A stretch of DNA of 64,000 bases from a virus (lineage: Duplodnaviria; Heunggongvirae; Uroviricota; Caudoviricetes): IMG/VR virus record IMGVR_UViG_3300048091_000424. One strand, 5' to 3'. The notes under the pieces are model-generated. The model was not told where the DNA came from, did no database searches, and saw only the letters and a list, made by a program, of their open reading frames with translations. Of the stretch, positions 18,344 to 58,479 are shown in pieces. Each line of letters begins with the position of its first letter. The stretch's first letter is position 1. The position numbers and the translations under genes are program-made.

Positions 18344-20767
18344 ATGCAAGACTCTCATACGATAAAAATAGAAGCCGCTAAGAAGTCTATCGCCTCAGGA
18401 ATTTTCAACCTGAGCCACCTCGAAGACTTTCGGAGTGAATTTGATAACCTGAGTTGGAAGAAGCTCACTGCCTTCGGCGGTGAGAATATGAATGCCCTTT
18501 CCTCTTCTGACCAGGTTTTTATCAAGGATATTCTGGCCAAAGCCCTTGGGATTGATATTCAGGATTTGACACCTGACAGCTTGTTCAGCCCGCATAGGTC
18601 GTTACAGATTTTGCAGTCCATCAGAGTCGGCCAACCCGTACACGAGTTAATGTGGGAGCTATCAGTAGAGGCCAAGAGATACATCGATCATTTGATACAT
18701 GCTCATGGTGAGGAAAAACCAGTTTTTAAATTCCTGGTCGGAAACCCTGGTTCAGGGAAGACGACCTTTAGAAATCTGCTGCAATCTAAACTAGATCCGA
18801 GTTCTCCAATCATCCATAACACATTTGGCGCACAAACGACTGGGAACACTATTCACCTTGCGTGTGCATTCCTGTTCGATAAGGTAATGATTGATTCAGC
18901 GGCGAAAAAACTAAAGGAAACGAAGCTTCGTGATGCGCGGGCCTACGGGAATATAAAGAAATACGCAATGTCCCACAATTACTATCAGGTGCTGTCTCCT
19001 TTATTTGGCTACGCTGAATCAGATAAAGATGGATCGCTGGCCGAATTTGTTAATGAATATCACAACGCCGTGAACTGTTGGATTAAGAAAGACACAGTTG
19101 GAGAACTTAAATCACTTCAAAGACATTATGGTGAACCCTGCGAGGTAATGCCTAGACCAAAAGAGTCGAATTCAATAAACTTTACTGCACAGATAATGAG
19201 TTTCTATAGCAAGATCGGACTTTATCCGGTTTGGTTAATGGACGAGTTCGAGGCTCACGAATCTCTTTACCGCGCTTATAGAATTAAAGTTTTGGACTAT
19301 TTCCGTGGGTTCTTTGACATTTTATCTGACCCGAGTTCTAAAGGCTTCTGCCTGATTTTCTCCACTGAAGCTGGCATGCACATCATTGATAGCTATCCAG
19401 CTTTAAGTGACAGACTCTCTTCTGGTAAGTATTTTTCGCTCACTCAAGCCATCTGGAGGCTGTCGGCACTAGATAAATGGAATAATGAGTATGCAATCAA
19501 GGTCATAAAGGAGTTGTACCACGCATCAGCTCAAATTGACGATATTTCTGAGGCTGTAGATAGAGCCATAAGCGAACTTGGTGGTGAACTTGACCTTGTA
19601 TTGAACAGAGAGTTCAACAAGGAAGTCGCTAGAAATCGTTTGACCCCAACTGTGACTGGCCTACTTGATCCACTATCTGAACCAGACTCGACAATAAAAA
19701 CAGACATCAAGAAAATCGCCGACAAAATTAAGTCGATTGAAGCCGCTGCAACTCAAGTGACTCGTGCTTGTTATGAACCAGAAATGGAAAACATTAAATC
19801 ACCAACTAGTGACCAGCAACACGCTGGTAACCTAGTCTTAGCTAAGGAAAATTACGACCCTACAGCAGCTGTTGTATTGATGGAGTATGCTGCCGGCAAG
19901 GATCGTAACCGTGATCCGTTCGAAGACGATCCATTCGGTGATGATCAGTTAGTAGAATCTTCAGAAGATGATGACTTCGACAGTTTTGATGGGTTCGAAC
20001 TGCCAAACCTGTACGCAAGTGATTATCGAGGTGAAGCTGATTTTATTGAATACCTAATTAGCTTCGAACATAACATCACCAATATTACAGTCGACAACTT
20101 GAGACCGCAGCAAATCAAGGAAAGTTCAATATTCAACTTCTTTGCGCGTAACAAGCACAAACACTCAGCCAAGTGGCCGGCACAACTGCAATTTAATAAA
20201 AAACCTCTAGAGTTTTCTGGCGAGCTAAATAGTAGTGATTTAAAATTCATTATCAGCGATTTCGAAAAATCCAGGTCACCCTCAAGCCTGGCTAAGAAAT
20301 ACGCAAGGTTTCGTGATTTGGGTGGCCGTTACGAAAACCTTCCATTGCAAATTCAGACTGCGATAGAAGATAAACTACCAGAAATCAACAAGCAATTTAA
20401 CTTCAACCTTAATCTTATTTTATCAGCTGTGGCGAGCGACCACCTCCTACCAACGGTTAAGATAACAGACCTGAAAAGGATACAGTCGGATGGAGACAAC
20501 ATAATCTCTATCCAAGGTCAGTCAGTCACACAACTCGTTCGGTGGAATGTGTTTGAGACGCTGTCTCTTACCAGATCACTTGTTTATGCCTACGCGTTCA
20601 ACTCAGGATATTTCCCACCTGATGCAGAGGTGGATGAGTATGTCCTTGAATGGCACGAAAAATTGGGGATGACGAAAATTACGCCAGATCGAAATGGGGT
20701 TTTCTTCTACTCGAAAGATGGCCTATGGGATAAGGAACTCCAGAATATCCGTAATACGTGGGAATGA
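18344..20767 (+). CDS. Large P-loop NTPase (807 aa) in an AT-rich island
   Basis: Walker A FLVGNPGSGKTTF, Walker B-like VWLMDEFE; acidic linker DPFEDDPFGDDQLVESSEDDDFDSFDGFE; composition visibly AT-richer than the flanks. Confidence 0.8.
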   Translation: MQDSHTIKIEAAKKSIASGIFNLSHLEDFRSEFDNLSWKKLTAFGGENMNALSSSDQVFIKDILAKALGIDIQDLTPDSLFSPHRSLQILQSIRVGQPVHELMWELSVEAKRYIDHLIHAHGEEKPVFKFLVGNPGSGKTTFRNLLQSKLDPSSPIIHNTFGAQTTGNTIHLACAFLFDKVMIDSAAKKLKETKLRDARAYGNIKKYAMSHNYYQVLSPLFGYAESDKDGSLAEFVNEYHNAVNCWIKKDTVGELKSLQRHYGEPCEVMPRPKESNSINFTAQIMSFYSKIGLYPVWLMDEFEAHESLYRAYRIKVLDYFRGFFDILSDPSSKGFCLIFSTEAGMHIIDSYPALSDRLSSGKYFSLTQAIWRLSALDKWNNEYAIKVIKELYHASAQIDDISEAVDRAISELGGELDLVLNREFNKEVARNRLTPTVTGLLDPLSEPDSTIKTDIKKIADKIKSIEAAATQVTRACYEPEMENIKSPTSDQQHAGNLVLAKENYDPTAAVVLMEYAAGKDRNRDPFEDDPFGDDQLVESSEDDDFDSFDGFELPNLYASDYRGEADFIEYLISFEHNITNITVDNLRPQQIKESSIFNFFARNKHKHSAKWPAQLQFNKKPLEFSGELNSSDLKFIISDFEKSRSPSSLAKKYARFRDLGGRYENLPLQIQTAIEDKLPEINKQFNFNLNLILSAVASDHLLPTVKITDLKRIQSDGDNIISIQGQSVTQLVRWNVFETLSLTRSLVYAYAFNSGYFPPDAEVDEYVLEWHEKLGMTKITPDRNGVFFYSKDGLWDKELQNIRNTWE

Positions 20768-20780
20768 CCTTCTCTTAGGC

Positions 20781-20806
20781 AAAAAACCGCCCCCTTCGGG
20801 GGCGGT
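20781..20806. terminator. Strong GC hairpin after the NTPase gene
   Basis: AAAAAA-ACCGCCCC-cttcg-GGGGCGGT; the A-run precedes it, so the U-tract is better on the minus strand. Confidence 0.7.
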
Positions 20807-20910
20807 CTATTGCGCATCCTGGGAAATTTCGAGGCCCAGAAAAGCAACTTTGACGCAGGAATGACGCGCCCCATAAACTGGGGTATGGCAACGTATTTTG
20901 AGTCCAACCC

Positions 20911-21516
20911 ATGCGCAAGCTGCCCAACTTGAAAGATCGGTTTTTCTACCACGGATCCCCGTGCTCCATTGATGTCTTCGACTACAAGTTCGCCGAGAAC
21001 GGGCAGGGATTTGGCTTTTACTTCACCACGGATAAATCCGGCGCCGCAGGCTTTTGCTCCGAAAACCCCATCACCAAGGCGGCGGGGTTACCTTTCGTCC
21101 CGACACTTCACAAAGTCCGCCTAAAGGTAGAAAACCCACTGGGTCACCAGCATGTCCAGGCGCTGACGAAGGCCCAATGCCGGGAGATCATTAAACGCGC
21201 TCCAAACCTCGAGGAAAGGCTCTGGAACACCTGGGATGTCGATAGCCTCGGTGCAGACAAAGCGCTGGATGAGGCAGCCAAGCTCTTTAGCGGCAAGGAT
21301 TGCATCCTCATCAGTACACTCAACCAAATCGCCAACGAATTCTTTGAGGGCGAGATGGGGGCGCTCAGCTCTGCCCTGCGCGACGTGACTGGTTACGACG
21401 GCTTGATCCGCACATGCGGTAAAGATGTGACGATCATGGCCTGGTTCCCTGACCAGGTCGAAATCGTGTCTCGCATCGACCCAGCTCTCGAACTGGATGA
21501 GGCGCCTGCACCATGA
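20911..21516 (+). CDS. Hypothetical protein; possible ADP-ribosyltransferase-like (ART-PolyVal-type) enzyme
   Basis: FYHGS...GFGFYFTT...GYDGLIR...AWFPDQVEIV recalls the H-Y-E ART pattern of polyvalent-protein ARTs (from memory, unverified); stop overlaps next start (ATGA). Confidence 0.5.
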   Translation: MRKLPNLKDRFFYHGSPCSIDVFDYKFAENGQGFGFYFTTDKSGAAGFCSENPITKAAGLPFVPTLHKVRLKVENPLGHQHVQALTKAQCREIIKRAPNLEERLWNTWDVDSLGADKALDEAAKLFSGKDCILISTLNQIANEFFEGEMGALSSALRDVTGYDGLIRTCGKDVTIMAWFPDQVEIVSRIDPALELDEAPAP

Positions 21517-22634
21517 GTGACACTACCCCAAGCGCCTTCGACCAGTTGGTAAAAATCCGCGTTGAAATCCGCAAGCATTGTAAGTCTCAGACTGGCGGCG
21601 ATCCGATGGACGTCTACGACCTCCTGTCCGACTACTGTGACATCTTGGAGCGCCTGGCCACCCAGCGGCAATATTCGGTCATGGCCACGGCCATGGATCG
21701 CCTCAACACCGTCGCTGAAGATTTGTTTCAGCGTCCGCACATGGTGCCGGTGATCGCCGATTTGTTTTTGGAGCGCCTCCCCTTTAGTCACCGCACGGTA
21801 TTCAACCTCGCTGGAAGTTTGACCGGCGTGCTGCGTGAAAACCTGTCGCAACTTGCTGTCGAAAACCTCATAGCCCACGAGGCATTTCTTTCAGATAGGG
21901 ATGAGCATCTCGCAGGTGGCGTTATCCGAAATCTGCTGCGCTATTGCGATAGTCCAGCACCGGCTTTGCAGTACGCGCAGTCGATCCTGCCCCTGTTCAA
22001 TAGTAAGACGTCGGGTTTTGAGTCAGTCCTAAGCGCCATACTCGACAGTAGAACATTGAAAAATATGCCTCATGAGAAATTCCAGCCTTTGGTGGAATGG
22101 GTGTCAGAGCTCGATGTTCTTACCTTGTGCCAAGGGCTAAAGCCGGGCTATGCCACGAAAGAGAGAGTCGCCATCTTCCGCGAAGCGGGCTTACCTCTTC
22201 TCGCCGATGGCCTCTACTATAAAAACAACCAGGTGAACGCTCGGGAGATGATCGAAATCCATAGGCGAACAGGCCTTAAACCCGACGCGGCATACCTTGA
22301 TCAATTCTTCGGCCAGGGTAAAACCCCTGAGGCGAGGGAGCTTCGCGAGCTGCTGAAGTATTCTTTGGCAGTTGAGAACGTTTTCCCACTGGACTGGGAG
22401 GGAATCAAAGCACCGTGGGTCACCAGCTCCCTGGTAGATGCTTTTGCCCGCCTCGAGCAGATGGGTGTAAGACCCCGCTCTCCTGAGGAATGCGAACCGC
22501 TGATTTCACAGTTGGGCGATCACCTTAGAAGCTCGGAAAACATGGACTCGCTGCTCAACAAAAAGACTAAGCCATACCTGCAGATCTCCCATAAATTTAA
22601 CGGCAAGCTGTTTGGCCTAGAACTCGGCCTTTAG
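21513..22634 (+). CDS. FxxDLGL-tail family protein (373 aa), subtype A
   Basis: Ends KLFGLELGL; shares LLKYSLAVENVFP and PRSPEECEPLIS with 25072..26253. Confidence 0.75.
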   Translation: MSDTTPSAFDQLVKIRVEIRKHCKSQTGGDPMDVYDLLSDYCDILERLATQRQYSVMATAMDRLNTVAEDLFQRPHMVPVIADLFLERLPFSHRTVFNLAGSLTGVLRENLSQLAVENLIAHEAFLSDRDEHLAGGVIRNLLRYCDSPAPALQYAQSILPLFNSKTSGFESVLSAILDSRTLKNMPHEKFQPLVEWVSELDVLTLCQGLKPGYATKERVAIFREAGLPLLADGLYYKNNQVNAREMIEIHRRTGLKPDAAYLDQFFGQGKTPEARELRELLKYSLAVENVFPLDWEGIKAPWVTSSLVDAFARLEQMGVRPRSPEECEPLISQLGDHLRSSENMDSLLNKKTKPYLQISHKFNGKLFGLELGL

Positions 22635-22644
22635 GGAATTTTCA

Positions 22645-23841
22645 ATGTCAAACCAAATTGCCCGTGATCTGACGCAAGCCGCACAAGCGCTGATCCGAAC
22701 CGTGAACGGCACCAATCCGGGCGAAGATGTTCTGCACCAACAATTATGGGATCTGGCTAATGCGTGCCATCTGGCCAAGCAAAATGACAGCCTCAATCTC
22801 CTGGCGCGTGCTCACCAGGCGGTAAAGGAAACGACACGAGGGTTCATGAACCTGGTCACACGTCGTGGATGTCCCGATGTCATCGCTCAGTACCTGGAGT
22901 TGTTTCCTCTCCATGAGCAATACGCTGAGGAGTTTTTGCAGATCATTCACGAATCGGAGTGTCTCAATGCGGCAGATAAGAGCCGCTTGCTTGGGGATCT
23001 GGTCGACAATGTTATCAAGCATGAAACCTTCACCGTGAAAAATCAGTTTGGGGGCACCGACTTCTACGACGCCCGCAAGTTTCTGGTGATGAATCTGAAT
23101 GGCTTCGAATTCGAAGAGGGCAAAAGCCTCGACTCCACGCCGCTTGGCAAATTCTGTACGAATCTCTGCGAGATCCGAAACGATGCCGCCGCCATCATAA
23201 TCACCACGTTGAACACGGCGGAAAGTGCCCGGTCGGCCAATGCGGCTGTTGGATACAAAGCTCTAGGATATTGGTTCAATGGTCATCAGCCGGATCTGTT
23301 TTTGGGTGTGATGCGCAACAATCCGTCTGACTACAATACCTTTAACATTGTGCAAACAACGAGGGATACGCTTGAGGCGCCCTACCTCGCCGCTTGCCTC
23401 AATATGCGTTCAATCGATCCTGATTTTGAGATCCTGATCGAAGGCCTTAAAACCTATGAACTCAGGGTTGATGAGACCTTTAAACGCACGATGGCGTACG
23501 ACTCTGATGGAGAGTCAATGCGAACTCTTTCTGAGGGAACTCTGGAGACATTGATCGCATACTCACTCACCGTCGAACATGTCTTGCCCCACGCCATACA
23601 GACTGTTGGGACGAAGTACGACCTCATCACAGCATTGGTCAACGCCGGTCGAGAAGTGGCGAAGCCCGAGTACCAGGCGTTTGATAGCAAAGCCAGGGCT
23701 CAAGAGGTCGTCGACTTTGTAATGGACAGGGTCACCGGGAAAGAGGACTTCTCCCAGATGGAGACCAGTTGGCTACTGCCGTATGCTCAAAAGAACCTTA
23801 CCTACCTCAAGCACGCGTTCAGTCGTGACCTAGGATTGTGA
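22645..23841 (+). CDS. FxxDLGL-tail family protein (398 aa), subtype B
   Basis: Ends NLTYLKHAFSRDLGL; collinear with 23882..25069. Confidence 0.75.
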   Translation: MSNQIARDLTQAAQALIRTVNGTNPGEDVLHQQLWDLANACHLAKQNDSLNLLARAHQAVKETTRGFMNLVTRRGCPDVIAQYLELFPLHEQYAEEFLQIIHESECLNAADKSRLLGDLVDNVIKHETFTVKNQFGGTDFYDARKFLVMNLNGFEFEEGKSLDSTPLGKFCTNLCEIRNDAAAIIITTLNTAESARSANAAVGYKALGYWFNGHQPDLFLGVMRNNPSDYNTFNIVQTTRDTLEAPYLAACLNMRSIDPDFEILIEGLKTYELRVDETFKRTMAYDSDGESMRTLSEGTLETLIAYSLTVEHVLPHAIQTVGTKYDLITALVNAGREVAKPEYQAFDSKARAQEVVDFVMDRVTGKEDFSQMETSWLLPYAQKNLTYLKHAFSRDLGL

Positions 23842-23881
23842 AATGTCTACCCGCCACCCATATCAACGAAGGAACGGATAA

Positions 23882-25069
23882 ATGACAACTCTGACGAGTA
23901 GACTCGCCACAGCGACCAAGGCTTTGCAATCCAGCCTAGAGCTCCGACATCCTTCCCCCGAGGTGTTGATGCAGCAACTGCACGACCTGGCGGAGATCGG
24001 GTATCAAGCCCATGGCACATTCAGCGTCAACCTCTTGGCAAAGCTTGATGGTGCGTTGAAGGACTGCACGCGAGGGCTGATGAGCAACCTGGAACGCAAC
24101 GAACATCCCGAAGTCATCGAGCTATTCCTTCAGCTGTTTCCTGTAAACGACCATTACGTCGTTGAGTTTATGGAAACAATCTGTCGTTGCGGGACTCTGG
24201 ACATAATTGAAAAAAGGAACCTGAGGGAGAAGCTGATTGCCAATGTGATCAATCATGAGACCTTGGCCACCTATGGTCGCGACGCCATCCTGAACCATAG
24301 CGCCGCGATAAACTTCATAGAGGCCAGCATGGACGGGTATGGCGATGGCGGCGAATCAGCTACTGTCGACAAGGTCTTCACTGACTTTTTCAAGTCAATC
24401 GTGCAGACACGATACGAGGGTGCCAATGTGCTTATGCGTGCGCTAAGCGCCAAAGAAGCCAATCCAGGCATCACCAAGCTGGACGGGTGGAAAAAGCTCA
24501 AGGCATGGCTCCTGGACAATGAACAGTTCGTAATCAGTTGCGTGCTAGCCAACGGGATGTCGGATTACAATTCCGCATCCAGCATCCTGCATGCTCAAAA
24601 TAGCTTGGGCTTACCTCACCTGGCCGCTGCCTTGAACCTACGGTCTTCAGATCCAATTTTGAAGGTTCTGGTTGAGGGTCACACCATCTATGGTTTGTCA
24701 GTGGATGAAAGCTTCATGCAGGGTATTGGCCTTACCGACGGTGGAACCCAGCGCAAGTTTGATCATCTTACCCTCGAGTGTCTCCTCGCCTACTCCTTGA
24801 TGATAAAACCCATTTTGCCTGACCCGCTGGAGCCCAAGGCCGCGAACAGCTTGGTTGAGTCTCTTTGCGCGGCTGCCAACATAGTTACTTTTGAGCAGTA
24901 TGAGAGGTTTGACTGCAAACCTAACGCTCAAGCGGTTGTCGACTTTGTGATGGAACGTGTGACCGGAAAAGAGAATTTTGCCCTGCTCGAAGACAGCTGG
25001 CTGCGCCCTTACGCCGAGAAGAACCTGACCTACTTGAAACACGCGTTCACTCGCGATTTGGGATTGTGA
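23882..25069 (+). CDS. FxxDLGL-tail family protein (395 aa), subtype B
   Basis: AAGGAA RBS; ends NLTYLKHAFTRDLGL; AQAVVDFVMERVTGKENF matches AQEVVDFVMDRVTGKEDF. Confidence 0.75.
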   Translation: MTTLTSRLATATKALQSSLELRHPSPEVLMQQLHDLAEIGYQAHGTFSVNLLAKLDGALKDCTRGLMSNLERNEHPEVIELFLQLFPVNDHYVVEFMETICRCGTLDIIEKRNLREKLIANVINHETLATYGRDAILNHSAAINFIEASMDGYGDGGESATVDKVFTDFFKSIVQTRYEGANVLMRALSAKEANPGITKLDGWKKLKAWLLDNEQFVISCVLANGMSDYNSASSILHAQNSLGLPHLAAALNLRSSDPILKVLVEGHTIYGLSVDESFMQGIGLTDGGTQRKFDHLTLECLLAYSLMIKPILPDPLEPKAANSLVESLCAAANIVTFEQYERFDCKPNAQAVVDFVMERVTGKENFALLEDSWLRPYAEKNLTYLKHAFTRDLGL

Positions 25070-25071
25070 TT

Positions 25072-26253
25072 ATGCCCACTCAGAACGCCCTACCCCCCAT
25101 TGTCCGTGACATCAGCCGGTACAATGACTTGCTCACAATCAATAATGAGTTGTACCGATTGGTTGTGACTGATGACCCGGATCCGCTCCTCGTTCACGCG
25201 CTGATGGTCGACTTCATTCAGGGAATGGATGACCTTGCGACCCAGCGCCTGCATGTCCTGGTGGGGAAAGCAGCCGCGATGATGGATGTGACCATTCTGG
25301 ATCTGTTCAAGCGTCCGGCAATTGCTGAAGTCATTTCTGAGTTGTACTTCCAACATTTTCAGGCACCGATTCGTCTGGTGTTCAGTATCGCTGCCGGGCC
25401 GGAAGGCCAACTGCTGACGGATGCATATAGCGATGAGCTGCGTGATGCTTTGGTGGCTCGGGGCGTCGAGAACTTGATCGCCTACGATGCTTTTACCACT
25501 GACACCGACCAGCATCTCATGGATTCGTTGATCATCCACATTCTTCGACTTAGCGAGCAAACTCAGCCAGCAGTGGACTTGTGCGACGCTATTGTGGGAC
25601 GTCGTAATGACAAAAAAGCAGGCATCGATGTCATATTTTCAGCGGTTTACATCGCCATCCAGGACGCAAAATATAAACCCGACGCTACCAGGCCTTTATT
25701 GGCTTGGATGCAGGGCAGGCAAGCTGATTTGGTCAACCAGATGGTCAATACCAAGCAGGGAATTTGGATGGCTATGGAACTGACTGACTTTTTTCAAAGC
25801 AACGGGCTGCAAGATCTTGCGGATCGCTGGTACCTTCGCTCCAGCTACTTGGATTTTCAGCGTTTGTACGCCATTCATCAGCGCTGTGGCTTGAAACCTG
25901 ATCAGGATTATCTGCAGCAATTCATCGCTGCCGATTGCAGCCCATCCATTAAGCTACTGGGTGACTTGCTCAAGTATTCGCTTGCAGTCGAAAATTTTAT
26001 CCCTGACGCCAGTAAACTCACCTTCAAGCCGACCTGGGTCACCAAATCCTTGGTGGATGCCTTCAACACCTTCCGCGAAATGGGCATTGAACCCCGCTCA
26101 CCAAAAGAGTGTGAGCCACTGATTTCCCTTTTGGCTGGGCATTTGAAAAGCGAAGAAACCATGACTCCCCTAATGGCCAAGGAAATCCAGCCCTACATCG
26201 CGATCTCGAATAGCTTCCAGACTAAAATGTTCGGCATGGACTTGGGTCTGTAG
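25072..26253 (+). CDS. FxxDLGL-tail family protein (about 393 aa), subtype A
   Basis: Track ORF 25066..26253; ATG at 25072; ends KMFGMDLGL. Confidence 0.75.
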   Translation: MPTQNALPPIVRDISRYNDLLTINNELYRLVVTDDPDPLLVHALMVDFIQGMDDLATQRLHVLVGKAAAMMDVTILDLFKRPAIAEVISELYFQHFQAPIRLVFSIAAGPEGQLLTDAYSDELRDALVARGVENLIAYDAFTTDTDQHLMDSLIIHILRLSEQTQPAVDLCDAIVGRRNDKKAGIDVIFSAVYIAIQDAKYKPDATRPLLAWMQGRQADLVNQMVNTKQGIWMAMELTDFFQSNGLQDLADRWYLRSSYLDFQRLYAIHQRCGLKPDQDYLQQFIAADCSPSIKLLGDLLKYSLAVENFIPDASKLTFKPTWVTKSLVDAFNTFREMGIEPRSPKECEPLISLLAGHLKSEETMTPLMAKEIQPYIAISNSFQTKMFGMDLGL

Positions 26254-26311
26254 GCCACCACACAAAAAGGGCCATGTAAATTTTTCTGGCTTAAGAATTA
26301 CGGAGTTAACA

Positions 26312-27514
26312 ATGTCAACTGATCCATTTGCCCGGCTCGAAAACATCAACCCCGGCATGGGCCGACAAGCCATGTGCGATGCCATCGTGGATGTCGGCAA
26401 GGCCCTTGAGGCAGCGCTACCAGCGTACGGCAGGATCACCTTGATCTCGCTGAGTCAGCAGATATTACAACTGCGCACGGAGCTGCTGGAAGCATTCCCG
26501 CTGATGGAGGATCCTGCCCCGTACCTGGCGCTGATTTCAGCCCTTCCGCTTGATATGAAGGCAGCACACCAGCTGACCTATGATTTTGGCAAGCTTGGTG
26601 ATGATCCCGGTCATGGGCCGGTGCTTTTTGAATTGACCCGTGCGCTGGTGGATAACTTAAAACGCAACAATACCCTCGAGCGCGAGGCTGAATTTTTCAA
26701 GCACTCACACACCCCTCGGGCAGCTGGAGATATCGTGTGGACAACCACCGATTTTGAAAGGGATTTTGATGACTTTGCTTACCTCCTGCTGGATAGTCAG
26801 GCGAAAGACCCACACTGCTGCCTCGACCTGGTCGAGCACGTATTTTCTTTTTCCATCAATTGCCGCGACCTCAATCTTCAAGGAGGCTTGCTAACGGCAA
26901 TGCTGGCCCTCAACACGACATTCAACCATGAATCCGCATGCTGGCCAGCCGTGAAGCAATGGCTCAAGACCCACGAAGATCGGGTCTGCACGAGCTTGTT
27001 GAGCCAAGGCTGGAGCCGACAATTCAAACCGGAGCTGGCCCAGAAGGCCTTGGCACTTGGCTACCCGAAACTGCACAATGCGATAGTGCTCCGCAGTTGC
27101 CGGCACAATGAAAGCAACTTTCTGGCGCTTAAGCGGTTCCACGGGATCGATCCCGATCAAACCTGCTACGACATCATCTTGAAAAATCATCGTGACGAGG
27201 CCTGTGGAGCAGACAGCACGAGTCTTACAGCCTTGTTGGCGCACGCCCTGGTGTACGACCACCAGATCCCGGAAGACTGGATGATCAAGGCTTCAGACTC
27301 ACCGCTGAAATTGCTGGATAGCGCATATCAGGAAGTCAAAAAGAATGGCTTAGTGCCATCCATTGACAAACTCCACGACTTGTTTGAGAAGTCCTTACGA
27401 AAGTTGCGTAATGATCGAGATTTGACGTGGCTGGAGTCGTCAATATTTGCCCCATTTCTCCGTCAGTCATTGGCCTATCAGGCTGAGCGCTTCGGGCAGG
27501 ATTTAGGCCTTTAG
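26312..27514 (+). CDS. FxxDLGL-tail family protein (400 aa), subtype C
   Basis: GGAG RBS; ends ERFGQDLGL. Confidence 0.75.
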   Translation: MSTDPFARLENINPGMGRQAMCDAIVDVGKALEAALPAYGRITLISLSQQILQLRTELLEAFPLMEDPAPYLALISALPLDMKAAHQLTYDFGKLGDDPGHGPVLFELTRALVDNLKRNNTLEREAEFFKHSHTPRAAGDIVWTTTDFERDFDDFAYLLLDSQAKDPHCCLDLVEHVFSFSINCRDLNLQGGLLTAMLALNTTFNHESACWPAVKQWLKTHEDRVCTSLLSQGWSRQFKPELAQKALALGYPKLHNAIVLRSCRHNESNFLALKRFHGIDPDQTCYDIILKNHRDEACGADSTSLTALLAHALVYDHQIPEDWMIKASDSPLKLLDSAYQEVKKNGLVPSIDKLHDLFEKSLRKLRNDRDLTWLESSIFAPFLRQSLAYQAERFGQDLGL

Positions 27515-29840: not shown

Positions 29841-31406
29841 TCACAAGCCTAGGTCATTGGCGAAAGCGTGGCCGATCACCTTCAATGGAAGGTGGGGCAA
29901 GACCAGAGATTTCTCTAGTCCACCTTTGGACGTTATGGTGTTGAATTGCTGGATTGACTTAATATTGGCGCCAATTTCACTGATAGACAATGCGTTCAGT
30001 TTTACAATCTCAGCCATTATCTCAGGGTCTTTGTCGGTCACCGCATGTTTGATTACATGAAAAATAAGTTCTGATACTTTTCGCTTGGCCTGATCGCTTT
30101 CCGGGAAGGATCCCAGGAGCATTTTTGCATAAGCCATCCCACATCGACCCCTGGAATTCGTATGTGTGATCCCATATTCGAACCGTTCCAACAAGAACTC
30201 CAAGAATTCCTGCTTGGCATCCTCATTCAACAAGTTAACCCAGCGCTTCAATTTTCTTGTCGTTGCCAAGGAATTGGAGTCGCTGCATTCGGCGGAATAA
30301 TCTCTGCACCATAGAATAATACTGTCAACAGTAGAAACTTCTCGCAGAAGGTCAGCGCAGGAAGGATTTGCGGCCAACTTATCGAACCAATCTTCGTCCC
30401 ATTCAAACGCGTGCTCATTGAGCATCATGCGCAAAGGAGTCATTTCGGAACCGTCTCTGATTGCGAGTAACTCAGGTATGGGCGCGGGATTGTAATCCCA
30501 ACTAACCGCTGAGGCTAAAATACAGGACGCCAACTCCAAATGATTATCCGCAATAACCTGTCTGCCAAGATAACTGCCAATGAGTTGCTGTCGGCTGATG
30601 TCGTCGAGCACGTACAACCCGTACCTGAAATTCCGACGTGAAAAATCATCTCCAGTTAGCGTGAAGGCACGTGAAAAGCCGCCATAGGAGAGGTCGTACA
30701 GGGTGGCATCGGTGAAACGTTTGATGGAGGCGCCCACCATCTCTTGATCGAGCACGCCGGCGAGTACCATCAGCATGGGTATGCGACACAGACTGCCCTC
30801 GCCGGTTTCCAGGTTCTTGTAGGCCTTGGTTACCTTGAATTGGCTGCTAAACGGTTTGGAGTATTTTGAGCCTGGTCGTTCGCAGCGTTTGATGCCACGA
30901 ACCCATTCTTGAACCCAGGTGTCTAGATGCAACTCGTCCTGCAAAATGATCGGGACAATCCGTCCGGCCAGTAGCATCTGCCCATCCATAGTGCTGCTGT
31001 TACGACCAGGCATCGCGTCGCACTGCTTTAAGATGTTGACCTGTTCAAGCGGGGTGTATCGGTTGTTCAGTGCCTTGACGGTGTGCGGCAGCCAGATGAA
31101 GTAGCTGGTCATTTCCATGTGATGGATCAGATGGCTTAACAGCGCAATGCTGTCAGAAGAATTATCTGAGGTAAGGAAGATCCTCTTCCATTCGATCCGC
31201 TGATCCGCAATCAGCTCCGCGACCTCTTCATCACTGAACCATGGCCAGTAAAATTCAGTGTGCGCCTGGCTGGTGCTAATCAGCTCATCGATGGCCTTAC
31301 GCTTTACGAAGATTTCTTCGCCAGCGAGATCTTGCTCTTCGATATGCATCAGCAGTGGCGTAATGAACCGCTCTCGCACGTCAGCGGGCTTCATGATGGT
31401 TGTCAT
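29841..31406 (-). CDS. FxxDLGL-tail family protein (521 aa)
   Basis: Ends VIGHAFANDLGL; start overlaps upstream stop (ATGA). Confidence 0.75.
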   Translation of the reverse strand: MTTIMKPADVRERFITPLLMHIEEQDLAGEEIFVKRKAIDELISTSQAHTEFYWPWFSDEEVAELIADQRIEWKRIFLTSDNSSDSIALLSHLIHHMEMTSYFIWLPHTVKALNNRYTPLEQVNILKQCDAMPGRNSSTMDGQMLLAGRIVPIILQDELHLDTWVQEWVRGIKRCERPGSKYSKPFSSQFKVTKAYKNLETGEGSLCRIPMLMVLAGVLDQEMVGASIKRFTDATLYDLSYGGFSRAFTLTGDDFSRRNFRYGLYVLDDISRQQLIGSYLGRQVIADNHLELASCILASAVSWDYNPAPIPELLAIRDGSEMTPLRMMLNEHAFEWDEDWFDKLAANPSCADLLREVSTVDSIILWCRDYSAECSDSNSLATTRKLKRWVNLLNEDAKQEFLEFLLERFEYGITHTNSRGRCGMAYAKMLLGSFPESDQAKRKVSELIFHVIKHAVTDKDPEIMAEIVKLNALSISEIGANIKSIQQFNTITSKGGLEKSLVLPHLPLKVIGHAFANDLGL

Positions 31407-32485
31407 AGCCCGAGGTCAGCCGAGAAGGCGCCGCCAAGCGCTTCTACGCTGAAATCTCGTTTATCCAGGCGATCCAAGTCAATACCCGGAATGGCGTTCA
31501 GCAGATCGAAGTCCTGAAGGGTCTTGAGTCCTGTTGCCAAAGCCTTCGCGTCCATCTGATTGAAGTACTTCGCATAACTCACGCCCGCCAGATGTGCGCG
31601 CCCTACTCCCAAGGCCAGGCCCACACTGTCACCCAAAGCCAGATCAGCTCGTATGCCTTTCATGAGTTCTGACTTGAATGCGTTCATGCGATCATCAGTA
31701 TCCAGCAGCAACTGCAACAGGTGCTCGGCATGATCACTGTCGAATGCACCCTCCAAGCGCTCTTTGAGAAAACCGGCCAGGCGGTTGATGAACGAAGGCC
31801 CTGGGTTATCGTCTGTTGAGGACGTCGCCAACTGTAGGTCAAGGAATAACGCTTTGCTGTTCTCGTCGTACTCCCGTCCCATCAGGCTGCCCAACAGGGC
31901 GTCATCCAGGAAGGTCATAAAGGGCGGCGCAGTCTGCTCATGCGCGGTCACACGCCGCAACTCACCAACGAGTCGATAAGCATTACAGTCAAGACTGGTG
32001 GCCGCCTGGCCGAGCTCACTCAAACCATTCTTTACCAGCAGGTTAGGAGCAGCGCGGCCAAGGCCTTCCATGAGCGACTTTGCGATGCTCGAAAGTGCTG
32101 CAGGGCTTACCGGGTCGGTCGATGAAGCAACAGAACGCAGCAGTGAACGCGCAGAGAAGCCGGCAGACTTGGTCAGGCCTTTGTCCATATCCGCAAGGCC
32201 CAGCGATGAGCCCACCACAGGAGTCAGAGGCTTGACGAGATCCGCGTTCAGGCTTGCTGCAGCGACATCCAGTTGATGGTAATCACAGGACACTTTGAAG
32301 AGGATCGGTACAGTGATATCGAAGTGGCCGGTGAGCGCGGCCAACTCCGTCTGAACCAAAGAAGTGGGCAGACCTGTCGTCAGGCCACCCCCTTCGGATA
32401 AAAACGAAAATACTGCCTGGTTCAGCGCGTTCAGTGAGTCTTCAGGAAGCGCCTCGTTTACTGGATTTGACATTGGATTTGCCAC
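31403..32485 (-). CDS. FxxDLGL-tail family protein (360 aa)
   Basis: Ends ALGGAFSADLGL. Confidence 0.75.
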   Translation of the reverse strand: MANPMSNPVNEALPEDSLNALNQAVFSFLSEGGGLTTGLPTSLVQTELAALTGHFDITVPILFKVSCDYHQLDVAAASLNADLVKPLTPVVGSSLGLADMDKGLTKSAGFSARSLLRSVASSTDPVSPAALSSIAKSLMEGLGRAAPNLLVKNGLSELGQAATSLDCNAYRLVGELRRVTAHEQTAPPFMTFLDDALLGSLMGREYDENSKALFLDLQLATSSTDDNPGPSFINRLAGFLKERLEGAFDSDHAEHLLQLLLDTDDRMNAFKSELMKGIRADLALGDSVGLALGVGRAHLAGVSYAKYFNQMDAKALATGLKTLQDFDLLNAIPGIDLDRLDKRDFSVEALGGAFSADLGL

Positions 32486-33171: not shown

Positions 33172-33247
33172 TCCGTGATAGCTCAGTCGGTAGAGCATCG
33201 GACTGTTAATCCGAGTGTCCCTGGTTCGAGTCCAGGTCACGGAGCCA
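33172..33247 (+). tRNA. tRNA-Asn(GTT)
   Basis: Hand-folded cloverleaf: acceptor TCCGTGA/TCACGGA, anticodon arm TCGGA-CTGTTAA-TCCGA, TTCGAGT T-loop, encoded CCA. Confidence 0.9.
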
Positions 33248-33259
33248 GCCTTACGCACT

Positions 33260-33346
33260 GCCCGAATGGCGAAACTGGTAGACGCATGGGACTTAAAATC
33301 CTCTGCTCGAAAGGGCGTCCCGGTTCGACTCCGGGTTCGGGCACCA
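33260..33346 (+). tRNA. tRNA-Leu(TAA), class II
   Basis: Acceptor GCCCGAA/TTCGGGC, loop CTTAAAA, long variable arm, encoded CCA. Confidence 0.85.
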
Positions 33347-33356
33347 AGAATTCAAA

Positions 33357-33440
33357 GCCGAAGTGGTGGAATTGGTAGACGCGGCTGATTCAAAATCAGT
33401 TGCCTACGGCGTGCGGGTTCGAGTCCCGCCTTCGGCACCA
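33357..33440 (+). tRNA. tRNA-Leu(CAA), class II
   Basis: Acceptor GCCGAAG/CTTCGGC, loop TTCAAAA, long variable arm, encoded CCA. Confidence 0.85.
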
Positions 33441-33448
33441 AACAAGAA

Positions 33449-33476
33449 AGGCCCAGCATATGTCTGGGCCTTTTTC
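33449..33476 (+). terminator. Rho-independent terminator after tRNA cluster 1
   Basis: AGGCCCAG-catatgt-CTGGGCCT followed by TTTTT. Confidence 0.85.
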
Positions 33477-33504
33477 ATTTTACTGCGCCCTGGATGTCGT
33501 CATC

Positions 33505-33717
33505 ATGAAACGCCTGTTTAGTCTGTTGTCCGAGCTTACGCGCCCTGCCCCACAACCAAACCTGGAAGGTCGCATCGAACCTACCGTGCCACGGCACATA
33601 GCAGCCTCACCCTTCGAAATGGCCTCAGATGAGCTGGCCAGAGATGGCGCCCGTCGCTTCAGCAATATCGATCAATTACGCGACAGAGTGAAGGGAACGC
33701 TTAGTCCCAATAATTAA
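33505..33717 (+). CDS. Possible small protein (70 aa)
   Basis: In-frame ATG within track ORF 33400..33717, downstream of the tRNA/terminator; no clear RBS. Confidence 0.25.
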   Translation: MKRLFSLLSELTRPAPQPNLEGRIEPTVPRHIAASPFEMASDELARDGARRFSNIDQLRDRVKGTLSPNN

Positions 33718-33741
33718 TTTCAAATATTTTTAAAATTGCTG

Positions 33742-33771
33742 TTGACAGTGTTTCAGGATTAGTTCTATCTT
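33742..33771 (+). promoter_or_regulatory. Sigma70-like promoter TTGACA-N18-TATCTT upstream of micro-ORFs and tRNA cluster 2
   Basis: Hexamers read directly. Confidence 0.5.
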
Positions 33772-33803
33772 AGCTACATCACTAGTTCAACCGAGTTTTT
33801 GAC

Positions 33804-33896
33804 ATGACCACTTTCACTCAACGCGATGATGCACGGCAGCAGGACGAACGTCCTGATATCTGCTCGCGTGATGAACGCTCTGTCAAAACTTTCTAG
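33804..33896 (+). CDS. Leader-peptide-like micro-ORF 1 (30 aa, 12 of 30 residues D/E/R)
   Basis: My translation: MTTFTQRDDARQQDERPDICSRDERSVKTF; internal hairpin CAGGAC-GAAC-GTCCTG at 33840..33855. Confidence 0.35.
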   Translation: MTTFTQRDDARQQDERPDICSRDERSVKTF

Positions 33897-33908
33897 CATC
33901 TCAGATTT

Positions 33909-33970
33909 GAGGGCTAGACGCCCTCTTCTGCTAAAACAGCCGGGGGCCCAAACCTCCGGCTTTTTGTTTT
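33909..33970 (+). terminator. Hairpin (GAGGGC-tagac-GCCCTC) plus intrinsic terminator (AGCCGGGGG-cccaaa-CCTCCGGCT-TTTTTGTTTT)
   Basis: Inverted repeats and U-tract read directly; terminator stem 33938..33961. Confidence 0.7.
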
Positions 33971-33983
33971 AAGGATTTCTATC

Positions 33984-34061
33984 ATGGCTACTTACACTAA
34001 CTTCGCTGACCGGACTGATCGTGACGAACGTCGCGATGAGCGCGAGTGCCTGACTGTCTAG
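33984..34061 (+). CDS. Leader-peptide-like micro-ORF 2 (25 aa, 12 of 25 residues D/E/R)
   Basis: My translation: MATYTNFADRTDRDERRDERECLTV; AAGGA RBS 10 nt upstream; internal hairpin 34018..34037 centred on GACGAACGTC. Confidence 0.4.
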   Translation: MATYTNFADRTDRDERRDERECLTV

Positions 34062-34072
34062 TGCCGTGATAC

Positions 34073-34128
34073 GGGGCTAGAAGCCCCCAGACCGACGAAC
34101 CGGGGGCCATGGCTCCCGGTTTTTTTTG
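34073..34128 (+). terminator. Hairpin (GGGGC-tagaa-GCCCC) plus intrinsic terminator (ACCGGGGG-ccatgg-CTCCCGGT-TTTTTTT)
   Basis: Same two-hairpin layout as unit 1, with compensatory base changes; ends 12 nt before the first tRNA of cluster 2. Confidence 0.7.
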
Positions 34129-34139
34129 AGTGTTATTTT

Positions 34140-34215
34140 GTCCCTCTCGTCTAATGGCTCAGGATATCTGGTTCTCAACCAGGTGATTGGGGTTCGAGTC
34201 CCCAGAGGGAAACCA
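34140..34215 (+). tRNA. tRNA-Glu(CTC)
   Basis: Glu-type body GTCCCTC-TC-GTCT...; anticodon arm TCTGG-TTCTCAA-CCAGG; G1/A72 mismatch; encoded CCA. Confidence 0.75.
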
Positions 34216-34292
34216 ATTAGTGGTCATTGCCAGGTTAGAGGCGATGCCAGCAAGGAATAAAGCGCTCATTAAGGTGAGTGTCAAGTTTACAA

Positions 34293-34368
34293 GGCCCGTT
34301 AGCCAAGTTGGAAAGGTACGTGACTGTCTATCACGCATGCAGGGGTTCGAGCCCCCTACGGGTCGCCA
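34293..34368 (+). tRNA. tRNA with anticodon GTC (Asp by anticodon), non-canonical loop CUGUCUA (U37), Gln-like D-arm
   Basis: Acceptor GGCCCGT/ACGGGTC, D-arm GCC-AAGTTGGAAA-GGC, anticodon arm CGTGA-CTGTCTA-TCACG, encoded CCA. Confidence 0.65.
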
Positions 34369-34413
34369 CTTAGTTACACTTTTCGAAACTGAAAAGTGTG
34401 TTTTAAAAGTTAC

Positions 34414-34489
34414 GCTCCATTCGTCTAGCGGCCTAGGACGGAGGGTCTTCGCCCCTCTAACACCGGTTCGAATCCGGTATGGAGAACCA
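34414..34489 (+). tRNA. tRNA-Glu(TTC) with C33 (loop UCUUCGC)
   Basis: GCTCCAT-TC-GTCT-AGCGGCCTA-GGAC; arm GAGGG-TCTTCGC-CCCTC; G1/A72 mismatch; encoded CCA. Confidence 0.7.
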
Positions 34490-34529
34490 GTTATAGCTAC
34501 ACGTTTTATAAAGGTTTATAAGTTACAAA

Positions 34530-34604
34530 GGCCCGTTAGCCAAGTTGGAAAGGCATATGACTGTCTATCATACATCAGGGGTTCGAGCCCCCTACGGGTC
34601 GCCA
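34530..34604 (+). tRNA. Second copy of the GTC tRNA with loop CUGUCUA
   Basis: Anticodon stem TATGA/TCATA versus CGTGA/TCACG in copy 1, i.e. compensatory changes that preserve pairing. Confidence 0.65.
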
Positions 34605-34652
34605 TTTAAGTTGCACTCTGATGCATTTCAAAGTGTTGGTTTTAATAGTTTT

Positions 34653-34728
34653 GTTCCATTCGTCTAGTGGCCTAGGACAGAGGGTCTTCACCCCTCAAAC
34701 GCCGGTTCGAGTCCGGTATGGAACTCCA
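34653..34728 (+). tRNA. tRNA-Glu(TTC) with C33 (loop UCUUCAC)
   Basis: Acceptor GTTCCAT/ATGGAAC fully paired; arm GAGGG-TCTTCAC-CCCTC; encoded CCA. Confidence 0.7.
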
Positions 34729-34812
34729 ATTTTGTTCGTTGTGTGGAGTAATTTCTGTGTCGGCAATCGAAACATAGACACAATTAAAGCTGTCACTTTG
34801 GACACAAAACAC

Positions 34813-34890
34813 GGTTTGTTAGCTCAGCTGGATATGAGCGCCGGCTTGTCACGCCGGAGGTCGCGGGTTCGAGCCCCGTACAAACCGCCA
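34813..34890 (+). tRNA. tRNA-Asp(GTC), canonical
   Basis: Acceptor GGTTTGT/ACAAACC; arm CCGGC-TTGTCAC-GCCGG; GGTCGCGGGTTCGAGCCCCGT as in bacterial tRNA-Asp; encoded CCA. Confidence 0.9.
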
Positions 34891-34896
34891 CTTACC

Positions 34897-34973
34897 GCTT
34901 CTGTAGCTCAACTGGATAGAGCAGCGCCCTACGAAGGCGAAGGTTAGAGGTTCGAGCCCTCTCAGAAGCACCA
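34897..34973 (+). tRNA. tRNA-Arg(ACG)
   Basis: Acceptor GCTTCTG/CAGAAGC; loop CTACGAA; encoded CCA. Confidence 0.9.
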
Positions 34974-35004
34974 TTTCAAACGCCTGGCTCACCCCAGACG
35001 ATCT

Positions 35005-35083
35005 ACCCCAGTCGCCAAACTGGATTAAGGCACCGGTCTTCGAAACCGGTCATGTGCAAGTTCGAATCTTGCCTGGGGTACCA
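35005..35083 (+). tRNA. tRNA-Arg(TCG), Gln-like D-arm
   Basis: Acceptor ACCCCAG/CTGGGGT; arm CCGGT-CTTCGAA-ACCGG; T-arm GCAAG-TTCGAAT-CTTGC; encoded CCA. Confidence 0.75.
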
Positions 35084-37262: not shown

Positions 37263-37435
37263 GAAAAGTACCTATGTGAATGAAGGTTACAGCCGCAGCT
37301 GGCTCGCTTTGCACAACTCACAAACTATACCGATATATTGACACTGCGACAAACAACATGCCTGTGACACTGGCGCCAGCCAGACCGCGTGCGTCACACT
37401 TAAATATCGTCGCAATCACTTCAGGCTGCCGCAGC

Positions 37436-38308
37436 ATGACCCCGGATTATCGCCAGCTCTCTGATGAGGATCTTCTGGATCTTGTGCTCTACGACAAGAT
37501 CGAGGTTCAGGACATTCCGCCAGCCAGAATGACTCGATCTTTCATACTCGAGGGCTCCCGGCAATTGCAGCGGTTTACCAAGAAGCTCACCCCGGAGCAA
37601 TTCACTCCGGAAGTGCAGACGATTGAGATCGAGCATTTACTCAAATCGCTTAGTTTTGTGGAGCTGGCCACGCTTCCCGAGAAGGCCGGTTACGCTGTGG
37701 TCGCCAGGCTGTATTTGAAGCGGTTCTCGGACAACATTCATGAAATACATCCGTCCTACCTGACTGATGATGACATCCAGACCGCCATCCTGAAAAATCC
37801 TGACTTGGTGAAATTACACAACCCTGCTCTCTTTGTTGCTGCACTCACACCGGCCCTGGCCAATCAACTGATTGAACATGACATTGCCAAGATCGATATG
37901 GTCGACCCATGGGTCATCACCGACGAATCTCTAAAGGCCGGCATTCACAAGAGGCCGCTCCGACTCCCCCATTTCGGAAAAGGCGAAGCGTTTCGACGCC
38001 TCATGGCTTTGCTCAAAACTGGATACTGGCCAGATCCAGACAACAACATCTGGATTACCTACCACAAACCCAGGACAGTGGCTGAGGCCGTAAAGAACAG
38101 ACTGGCTGACCACAATCAGCTGGCTGATATAACTCTACTCGATGCATATCTTTGCATTCAGCCGCTGACGTCTCTGAAGCTTCACGTGAGCAACAATGAG
38201 CTCCTCTTGCGCCTGATGCCCTGGTATCCGAAAGAAGAGGTGCTATCGACCTTCAAGGAGAACCTGGTGGTGGTCGGCGATGTGTTCAAAGCAGACCTCG
38301 GTCTCTAA
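37436..38308 (+). CDS. FxxDLGL-tail family protein
   Basis: Track ORF 37280..38308, start uncertain (ATG 37358 or 37436); ends VVGDVFKADLGL; GYWPDPDNNIW matches SGYWPEHWHDI in the next gene. Confidence 0.7.
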   Translation: MTPDYRQLSDEDLLDLVLYDKIEVQDIPPARMTRSFILEGSRQLQRFTKKLTPEQFTPEVQTIEIEHLLKSLSFVELATLPEKAGYAVVARLYLKRFSDNIHEIHPSYLTDDDIQTAILKNPDLVKLHNPALFVAALTPALANQLIEHDIAKIDMVDPWVITDESLKAGIHKRPLRLPHFGKGEAFRRLMALLKTGYWPDPDNNIWITYHKPRTVAEAVKNRLADHNQLADITLLDAYLCIQPLTSLKLHVSNNELLLRLMPWYPKEEVLSTFKENLVVVGDVFKADLGL

Positions 38309-38326: not shown

Positions 38327-39277
38327 ATGACCGACGCGCACGAAAGCTATGACCACTACGATTACGAACCGTCGCCATTTGAGACCAAACCAAAGGGTGA
38401 CTGGACTGACCAGGACTACGCCGATGCTTTGGGTGAGCAGAAAATCGTCTGGAATGAGATTCCTGGGTCATTCAGAACCAGCACAGTCTACCAGGTGGCC
38501 GTGACTCAGGATCGTACGTTGTACGGGCAAATACCGAAGGATCATCTGAACACCGAAATTCAGCTGAATGCGATCCGAACTTTCCCCGCGTTGTTCGCTG
38601 AGCAGAAGTTCTTTAACCCAAAGCTCTGCGATAACTACTACACCCTGGCGTGCGCGGCGGTCGCGACTGACGCCCAAAATATCTACGAGGTCAGCATTCA
38701 GTGCATTGATCGTCGTCTAGTGAGCGAGGCCATCCTCACCCAGCCGACCGTGGTGTACCACCTGTGGCAAAGATCGGAAGAACTGTGCAAAGAATTGGTG
38801 GATCAAGCCTTCGTCGAAGAGGCGGCTATCGATAACCTCAGCTGCATAGTCCTGCACAAATCGTTTAAGGGCAGAAACTACCTCGCTGACTTCCCTCTCC
38901 CGGATGAGGTTCTGATCAAAGCCGTCGAGGCACAACCGAAGAAAGCACGCTTGCTCGCAGAACTTGGCAGGGAGGGACTGCTCACTGAAATGATCAGGTC
39001 TGGCTACTGGCCTGAACACTGGCATGACATATCCAGGCCACAAGACCTGGATGCAGGCATTACGGCGTTCATCCGGAACAAGGAATCTGCAATTCAGCGA
39101 GCCTACTACAAGGCCTACATCAACCAGTGGCCATCGAGTGAAGTCATTCCCCTGATGCTCAACTGGCCGAGGAAAAACTACCTCCCGGACTTGTTCCCCA
39201 AGGAGGAATTGTTTGACGTGTTCAAGGGCGATCTGCAGACCCTGGGCAAATGGTTCAGCGAAGACCTTGGACTGTAA
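38327..39277 (+). CDS. FxxDLGL-tail family protein (316 aa)
   Basis: AAAGGA RBS; ends LGKWFSEDLGL. Confidence 0.75.
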   Translation: MTDAHESYDHYDYEPSPFETKPKGDWTDQDYADALGEQKIVWNEIPGSFRTSTVYQVAVTQDRTLYGQIPKDHLNTEIQLNAIRTFPALFAEQKFFNPKLCDNYYTLACAAVATDAQNIYEVSIQCIDRRLVSEAILTQPTVVYHLWQRSEELCKELVDQAFVEEAAIDNLSCIVLHKSFKGRNYLADFPLPDEVLIKAVEAQPKKARLLAELGREGLLTEMIRSGYWPEHWHDISRPQDLDAGITAFIRNKESAIQRAYYKAYINQWPSSEVIPLMLNWPRKNYLPDLFPKEELFDVFKGDLQTLGKWFSEDLGL

Positions 39278-49820: not shown

Positions 49821-49930
49821 AGGCCTATATCCTCCCTGACGGGTACCAAGTGCGTGTGTCTTACGCACGCGCTCACATGTTAAATTCAAGTATGACTCAC
49901 GCCGCAACGGCAAAGAAGAGATTCTCGTGC

Positions 49931-58421: not shown

Positions 58422-58479
58422 AAAAATGTTCCCTTTTTGAGAAAAGAAGCCGGCAGCAAGTGCGTGCCGGCATTAGCAG

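Follow-up and report, generated by a model that had tools for sequence, protein, structure and literature searches.

A free C-terminal tail shared by a five-gene array beside an ADP-ribosyltransferase gene, a candidate type IVB substrate tag on Pseudomonas megaplasmids

What is the role of five related genes that follow directly on a predicted ADP-ribosyltransferase (ART) gene? The question is raised by positions 20,911 to 27,514 of IMG/VR record IMGVR_UViG_3300048091_000424, a stretch of 64,000 nucleotides filed as DNA of a tailed virus and analysed here at its full length as the window. Six open reading frames (ORFs), beginning at 20911, 21513, 22645, 23882, 25072 and 26312 and all on the + strand, occupy the locus as a preliminary description of this DNA had placed them: the ART gene and five array genes, designated A, B, B', A' and C in gene order. 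The array paralogues each end in a ~14-residue peptide, L-K-x-[LRQ]-[GA]-x-x-F-[SG]-x-D-L-G-L-COOH. The tail is read here as a type IVB substrate tag, and the array as a diversifying set of tag-bearing partners for the ART, an interpretation drawn from sequence that is held at slightly less than even confidence. By its DNA matches the window appears to be a piece of a ~1-Mb Pseudomonas megaplasmid; the best public match is the 1.06-Mb plasmid of Pseudomonas serbica IT-P366 (95.5–96.7% identity), and the second-best is the syntenic 1.17-Mb plasmid pPL1 of P. silesiensis G3 (78% identity). The replicon is kin to pPL1 and, more remotely, to pMPPla107.

The tail extends far beyond the array. Fourteen window ORFs end in F-x-x-[DE]-L-G-[LM], and on pPL1, the one complete relative censused, the tail is found on 88 of 1,325 ORFs and ends ~8% of the proteins, with LGL by far the top terminal tripeptide. 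From amino acid frequencies, the terminal pattern F..[DE][LIM]G[LIMVF] is expected by chance an estimated ~0.02 times in ~1,300 ORFs; it is observed 14 times in the window and 86–88 times on pPL1. The logo of the 88 tails reads L(-13), K(-12), [LRQ](-10), [GA](-9), F(-6; 86 of 88), [SG](-5), any residue, D(-3), L(-2), G(-1) and L, M or I at the terminal position (0). When the tails are removed, the 88 proteins fall into at least 43 BLAST families, many of them in tandem arrays, and profile comparison ties just one of the 12 other multi-member families to the array (hhalign probability 72%, E 3.5e-5). Most of the tailed proteins are soluble and acidic; their lengths span 113–633 residues, and none of the 88 contains a Pfam domain.

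Several observations indicate that the peptide must stand at a free carboxyl end. Of the occurrences of the motif in pPL1 ORFs, 86 are at the terminus and 4 are internal, and in a six-frame translation a stop codon follows directly in 91 of 106 occurrences. The codons of the tail are scrambled at the synonymous level, each of the three stop codons is in use, and there is no conservation 3' of the stop, which argues for selection on the peptide and its free end. The same codon scrambling and lack of conservation past the stop led to rejection of a DNA or RNA element at the gene ends. Between orthologues the last 7 residues are 86% identical, compared with 67% for the bodies. DLGL tails also occur within a 40-kb sample of pMPPla107. 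Among lineage variants, the FeN3W plasmid (L027, CP136011.1) has a degenerate S-x-D-[LFM]-[DS]-[LIM], and a 952-kb metagenome scaffold, SHEN23 (L028), has L-E-x-D-L-G-M. A 42-column tail profile retrieved one fragment only from a set of 5.8 billion proteins, and a search of the Protein Data Bank (PDB) with a tail profile gave no sequence relatives; no mention of the motif, or of a tail on megaplasmid proteins, was found in the literature searched.

Two familiar classes of C-terminal peptide were considered and set aside. Escherichia coli Pol IV ends in ...QLVLGL-COOH, a beta-clamp-binding C-terminal peptide, and clamp-binding peptides resemble the tail in being short linear motifs at the very C-terminus that end in L-G-L. 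However, their defining Q-L (-5, -4) is absent here, the tail having F at -6, S or G at -5 and D at -3; the clamp-binding motif (QL[SD]LF / QLxLxL) was rejected on this logo, and ~90 orphan clients would be implausible for the clamp. Some substrates of type I secretion systems end in D plus hydrophobic residues, but the pPL1 scan revealed no ABC-exporter-like protein with a Walker A motif, and RTX repeats are absent.

Within the array, gene A (21513..22634, +) encodes 373 residues ending FGLELGL, B (22645..23841, +) 398 ending FSRDLGL, B' (23882..25069, +) 395 ending FTRDLGL, A' (25072..26253, +) 393 ending FGMDLGL when read from the ATG at 25072 (an alternative GTG lies at 25066), and C (26312..27514, +) 400 ending FGQDLGL. 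The outer and inner pairs recognized in the preliminary description are borne out by BLASTP: A and A' are 35.5% identical over 380 residues (E 3e-75), and B and B' are 37.1% identical over 391 residues (E 3e-82). C is indeed a third subtype, with 21–24% identity to A, A', B and B' (E 5e-8 to 1e-4), and A and B' share 20% identity over 324 residues (E 6e-6). Together with 15 invariant columns in a 13-sequence array alignment, these matches establish that all five proteins are related along their whole bodies and not in the tail alone. None of the outcomes that the preliminary description had named as refuting it was encountered. The motifs quoted earlier for the two pairs are present, except that B reads QKNLTYLKHAF, so the EKNL ascribed to both inner genes does not hold for B.

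A helical-repeat fold was looked for by structure prediction, and the AlphaFold2 model of B (predicted local distance difference test score, pLDDT, 78.9; 22 helices) is an all-alpha solenoid; on this model the five array proteins are predicted to be all-alpha, helical-repeat paralogues. They have no match in Pfam or NCBIfam and no sequence relative in the PDB. An exhaustive profile search of 1.84 billion cluster representatives yielded only 33 family members, and the tail or a near variant, such as RLE-x-DLGM, closes all 14 of those for which sequences were read. By these searches the array proteins form a new family of narrow distribution on megaplasmids of the pMPPla107 group. Relative to their pPL1 orthologues, A, B, A' and C have 56–63% amino acid identity (A 56%) and nonsynonymous divergence (dN) of ~0.29–0.32, with synonymous divergence (dS) saturated, and B' is the slowest member at 82% identity. 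The dN/dS ratios of 0.12–0.19 for A, B', A' and C (B was not computable) indicate that the array genes are real and under constraint, although by dN their pace of change is three- to sixfold that of the ART gene.

The gene at the head of the unit (20911..21516, +) codes for a stand-alone protein of 201 residues that the preliminary description had likened to the H-Y-E ADP-ribosyltransferases of polyvalent proteins. Pfam PF18760 recognizes it at 37.2 bits, above the gathering threshold of 31.2 (E 6.2e-9, profile positions 9–130 of 140), and all five homologues found among 5.8 billion proteins are precomputed as PF18760; at the level of profile matching it is confirmed as a member of the ART-PolyVal / Tox-ART-HYD2 type and is a predicted ADP-ribosyltransferase. 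The family assignment therefore stood, and two parts of the comparison did not. First, H14, Y37 and D163 are invariant in six ART sequences, down to 39% identity. H14 (FYHGS) lies in predicted strand 12–16 and Y37 (GFYFT) in predicted strand 36–39, and D163 (GYDG), the putative third catalytic residue, is at the start of predicted strand 164–169. Q182 is also invariant, and position 184 is E or Q. Iyer et al. (2017, PMC5512222) characterize the clade by a histidine in strand 1, a tyrosine in strand 2 and an aspartate in strand 5, so the triad is to be read H-Y-D and not H-Y-E. Second, the protein is a single-domain ORF in every relative found, unlike the ART-PolyVal domains of large multidomain polyvalent proteins, and its gene is coupled at translation to that of a distinct solenoid protein bearing the tag.

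The AlphaFold2 model of the ART (pLDDT 69) matches PARP and diphtheria-toxin folds and has an ADP-ribosyltransferase fold; no sequence relatives were found in the PDB. Its best structural match is a pre-ejectosome protein of cyanophage A4, a phage protein ejected into the host. ARTs of this clade are predicted to be delivered along with invading DNA (PMC5512222). The profile score above threshold, the invariant H and Y, the conserved D, the modelled fold, a carrier element of conjugative type and the ejected phage protein as top structural match are all shared with the ART-PolyVal/Tox-ART-HYD2 group. The ART has no DLGL tail. It is 92% identical to its pPL1 orthologue with a dN/dS of 0.065, values that point to strong purifying selection. 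In distant relatives a gene with WGR and PARP domains lies ~10 kb 3' of the ART gene (20335–20633 in L028, 11857–12155 in L029), a second NAD+/ADP-ribose enzyme in that neighbourhood.

The six genes are closely packed. The ART stop and the start of gene A overlap in an ATGA at 21513–21516, and the remaining junctions are 10, 40, 2 and 58 nt, in agreement with the head-to-tail layout with short spacers that had been described; use of the GTG at 25066 for A' would turn the 2-nt spacer, the third of these junctions, into a 4-nt overlap. Sequences resembling Shine-Dalgarno sites precede genes at most array junctions. A terminator-like hairpin at 20783..20808 (+), GC-rich with a T-rich tail and read from the sequence as aaaaaaccgcccccttcgggggcggtctatt, closes an inserted upstream gene and parts it from the ART operon. 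A consensus scan found a sigma-70-like promoter candidate, TTGACG-18 nt-TAAACT, at 20850..20879 (+), 31 nt 5' of the ART start; it fits 9 of 12 consensus positions, and is a weak candidate in that such sites are no commoner in the region than in shuffled sequence. The hairpin and the promoter-like site place the beginning of the unit just 5' of the ART gene, and the arrangement suggests that the ART and the five array genes form one operon.

The gene closed by the hairpin (18344–20767, +) encodes an 807-residue P-loop protein with weak AAA_22, Zeta-toxin and BrxC/D-like matches only. Because its GC content is 42% against 52% around it, and neither the P. serbica plasmid nor pPL1 has it at the corresponding position, it looks like a recent ~2.9-kb insertion immediately 5' of the ART operon.

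Comparisons of related elements clarify how the array was built. The locus occupies a shared site between an RNA-ligase neighbourhood and a conserved 171-residue gene plus DHFR. Five genes follow the ART in the order A-B-B'-A'-C in the window, the P. serbica plasmid, pPL1 and one metagenome contig; three follow it, A-B-C, in one contig; in pPLMAXa A and B follow it, and a C-type gene is split by an inserted reverse-strand ORF; and in two more distant elements one gene lies 3' of the ART and one or two C-like genes lie 5' on the opposite strand. The C subtype is present at all related loci, being 5' of the ART on the opposite strand in L028 and L031, and a neighbour-joining tree sorts the array proteins into A, B and C types. 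The mirrored order A-B-B'-A' reported earlier is real and conserved in three elements, but since one-third of random orders of two pairs are mirrored, the order by itself carries no weight; it follows from separate duplications of B and of A within an A-B-C ancestor. Array size at the syntenic site is 1, 3 or 5 copies. At every locus checked, down to 39% ART identity, the first array gene begins within the ART stop as ATGA or GTGA (L001, L028, L030, L031, L032 and L033); this covers five of the six related elements examined, all except pPLMAXa. The conserved unit, on these comparisons, is the ART plus one tailed partner. In pPLMAXa (L034, 10893–13436) the ORF that interrupts the C-type gene encodes 291 residues and is probably a mobile element; loss of C is thus tolerated there.

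A machine that might read the tail is encoded on the closest complete relative. Between 40 and 54 kb, pPL1 carries DotB (E 4e-89), DotD (above the Pfam cutoff), DotG/TrbI (Pfam match above cutoff, E 3.4e-10), DotH/IcmK (E 1e-34) and DotI/IcmL (E 3e-28), and at 1.107–1.111 Mb a TrbC/DotL-like coupling protein (E 4e-103) adjoined by DotM/IcmP (E 2e-37). R64-like thin-pilus genes are also present. The same DotM is common to FeN3W, pMPPla107 and pBASL58 at 53–59% identity, and pMPPla107 is typed MPF_I; no Dot/Icm-type genes lie within the 64-kb window. Between DotD and DotG/H/I on pPL1 (L002, 43352–46393, -), in the place expected of DotO/IcmB, is a 1013-residue P-loop protein with no Pfam or NCBIfam match. 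The DotM ranking next in similarity (27% identity) is found on Vibrio megaplasmids ~0.9 Mb in size. Baltrus et al. 2011 (PMC3136466) described a complete Dot/Icm-like system on pMPPla107, found no known effectors on that plasmid, and left unanswered whether the system serves DNA conjugation only or protein secretion too. Dot/Icm effectors of Legionella and Coxiella are recruited by the DotL-DotM-DotN coupling complex (PMC5802825, PMC7280309).

Under the favoured interpretation, the tail would be a docking and translocation tag that requires a free C-terminus; its reader would be the coupling complex, comprising the DotL-like ATPase and DotM, of the Dot/Icm-type system found on pPL1. Tailed proteins would be delivered into a recipient or target cell, and the ART, itself untagged, would travel along with its tagged partner or else be under that partner's control. 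The array may have grown from 1 to 3 to 5 copies, and its fast evolution could reflect variable targets met in the cells entered. The preliminary description had proposed diversification of an effector or cargo set expressed as one operon; we infer that this idea fits the copy numbers of 1, 3 and 5, a dN exceeding that of the ART by a factor of three to six, and the Dot/Icm-type system of the relative. The tailed proteins resemble Dot/Icm repertoires in forming a large set of unrelated, mostly orphan, soluble proteins with many paralogue arrays, in sharing information at the extreme C-terminus with acidic and hydrophobic residues, and in that pPL1, the closest complete relative, has genes for DotB, D, G, H, I and M and for a DotL-like protein. 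They differ in host and carrier, the present system residing on a megaplasmid of self-transmissible type in free-living or plant-associated Pseudomonas. A few other tailed genes are tightly coupled to untagged enzymes, namely an alpha/beta hydrolase, an RNase T-like exonuclease and a GHKL ATPase, and these couplings are weakly consistent with a layout of enzyme plus tagged partner. In its full form the proposal is more tentative, possible though clearly on the improbable side of even: megaplasmids of the pMPPla107 group may carry ~90–100 previously unrecognised type IVB substrates marked by a strict tag with a free carboxyl end, F-[SG]-x-D-L-G-L-COOH, with lineage variants such as L-E-x-D-L-G-M, and the ART and array operon may act as a 'split polyvalent protein' in which the enzyme enters a recipient or target cell on a tagged solenoid adaptor diversified into five copies.

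Several points weigh against this proposal. The connection of the tail to DotL or DotM is a prediction. Dot/Icm translocation signals are placed within the last 20–35 residues, and the tail is unlike those known from Legionella (E-block, FxxxLxxxK); Dot/Icm signals are loose and compositional or of E-block type, whereas the present motif is strict and near-invariant. The 88 tailed proteins contain no recognisable effector, toxin or eukaryote-like domain, the last of these a difference from Dot/Icm effectors, and their genes show no clustering around the secretion genes of pPL1. The ART itself lacks the tail, and the type IVB genes are known from relatives of the window's replicon rather than from that replicon. 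Finally, a 50-kb sample, at 400–450 kb, of the Vibrio parahaemolyticus plasmid pVP-19-VB00998 (L037), which has the next-closest DotM, contains no DLGL tails, and only two ORFs end in [DE]-F-S-[IV].

The same strictness lends weight to a different hub on the plasmid as the tail's receptor. The tail could be a docking peptide for a tail-specific or AAA+ protease (a common degron allowing coordinated turnover), for a chaperone, or for loading of a compartment such as an encapsulin or microcompartment, in which case the array would act inside the donor cell. A strictly terminal motif suits readers of free C-termini such as PDZ-like or TPR-like domains and protease adaptors, and hydrophobic residues at -13, -10, -6, -2 and 0 produce an amphipathic pattern of the kind that characterizes encapsulation peptides. 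However, no protease, PDZ or shell gene was identified in the limited part of pPL1 scanned with family models, ~90 clients in at least 43 families would be a large set for a degron or a cargo, and the one machine shown to be common to these replicons and known to read C-terminal signals is the type IVB coupling complex. Docking to another hub is considered fairly unlikely.

A second alternative turns on the overlap of the ART with the first array gene. The operon could be a toxin-immunity or toxin-antitoxin module in which the ART is the toxin, the overlapping gene its neutraliser, and the paralogues an expanded immunity array such as those found beside polymorphic toxins. The Tox-ART-HYD2 clade does include polymorphic toxins and toxins of toxin-antitoxin systems (PMC5512222), the toxin-first 4-nt overlap is kept across distant elements, and the copy number of the downstream genes varies. 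A dedicated partner would nevertheless be hard to reconcile with a tail common to 88 pPL1 proteins in at least 43 families, almost none of which lies beside a toxin-like gene. Between the window and pPL1 the ART is 92% identical and partner A only 56%, which is unusual for a tight cognate pair, and 370–400 residues is large for immunity proteins, leaving this module improbable. Very unlikely, finally, is a tail with no targeting role that forms the closing helix, for example an oligomerisation element, of an ancient and highly diverged protein superfamily, with the array a set of ordinary structural or regulatory plasmid paralogues beside the ART by chance: all tailed proteins are orphans without known domains and one other tailed family is remotely array-related beyond the tail, but the other 11 of 12 multi-member families have no profile similarity once it is removed, the tailed proteins vary widely in length, the tail is far better conserved than the bodies, and the stop needed directly after the motif points to free-end recognition rather than a packing helix.

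If the tail is a type IVB substrate tag, it would give type IVB systems their first sharply defined linear signal, would explain a large share of the 'dark' gene content of these plasmids, and would show that a stand-alone ART of the 'polyvalent protein' class is deliverable by a separate tagged partner. If it instead serves another hub, it would represent a targeting code spanning the plasmid, unlike any described in bacteria. A strict, searchable tag on ~8% of pPL1 genes makes the secretion question of Baltrus et al. (PMC3136466) directly testable, supplying a candidate substrate list and a minimal signal.

The remainder of the window agrees with a megaplasmid source. A phage origin was rejected, there being no megablast match among 50,697 phage records; phage-like genes are nonetheless present, including dCTP deaminase, DHFR, RNA ligase and tRNAs. 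The relatives of a 577-residue marker protein were found on four ~1-Mb Pseudomonas megaplasmids only, among them pMPPla107 and pBASL58. The window also encodes PgpA, PTH2, an R2K ATP-grasp protein, a sigma factor, a CCA/polyA polymerase, Ter proteins and many orphans, a content that fits the published picture of the pMPPla107 plasmid group, with its large tRNA arrays, mostly hypothetical genes and scattered housekeeping-like genes (PMC6482414, PMC3136466). Like the pMPPla107 family (Baltrus et al. 2011, PMC3136466; Smith et al. 2019, PMC6482414), the replicon would be ~1 Mb in size with a GC content of ~52–53% (52–53% across the 64 kb), and pMPPla107 shares the Dot/Icm-like system, a DotM 53% identical, and DLGL-tailed ORFs in the 40 kb sampled. 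The kinship is distant, however: pMPPla107 has no megablast match to the window, its version of the marker protein is 26% identical, and tblastn searches of pMPPla107 with window proteins B (22645) and 51321 returned no match.

The nine tailed window ORFs beyond the array are located at 48–557, 29841–31406 (-), 31403–32473 (-), 37280–38308, 38327–39277, 44109–44792, 49877–51289, 51321–52667 and 62346–63542 (-). Two sets of these are further paralogue pairs, 49877/51321 at 45% identity and 37280/38327, which are weakly related. An array of 11 tRNA genes at 33172–35083 (+), comprising Asn, two Leu, three Glu, three Asp and two Arg, is typical of pMPPla107-type megaplasmids. A Ter-type stress cluster at 42873–44021 (-) and 57828–60262 (-) encodes two TerD proteins, a DUF475/TerC membrane protein and a Ter-operon ATP-grasp protein. 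An FAD-dependent monooxygenase is broken into overlapping ORFs at 56416–57144 and 57032–57733 (-), each matching a different part of FAD_binding_3, and is probably a frameshift or a pseudogene.

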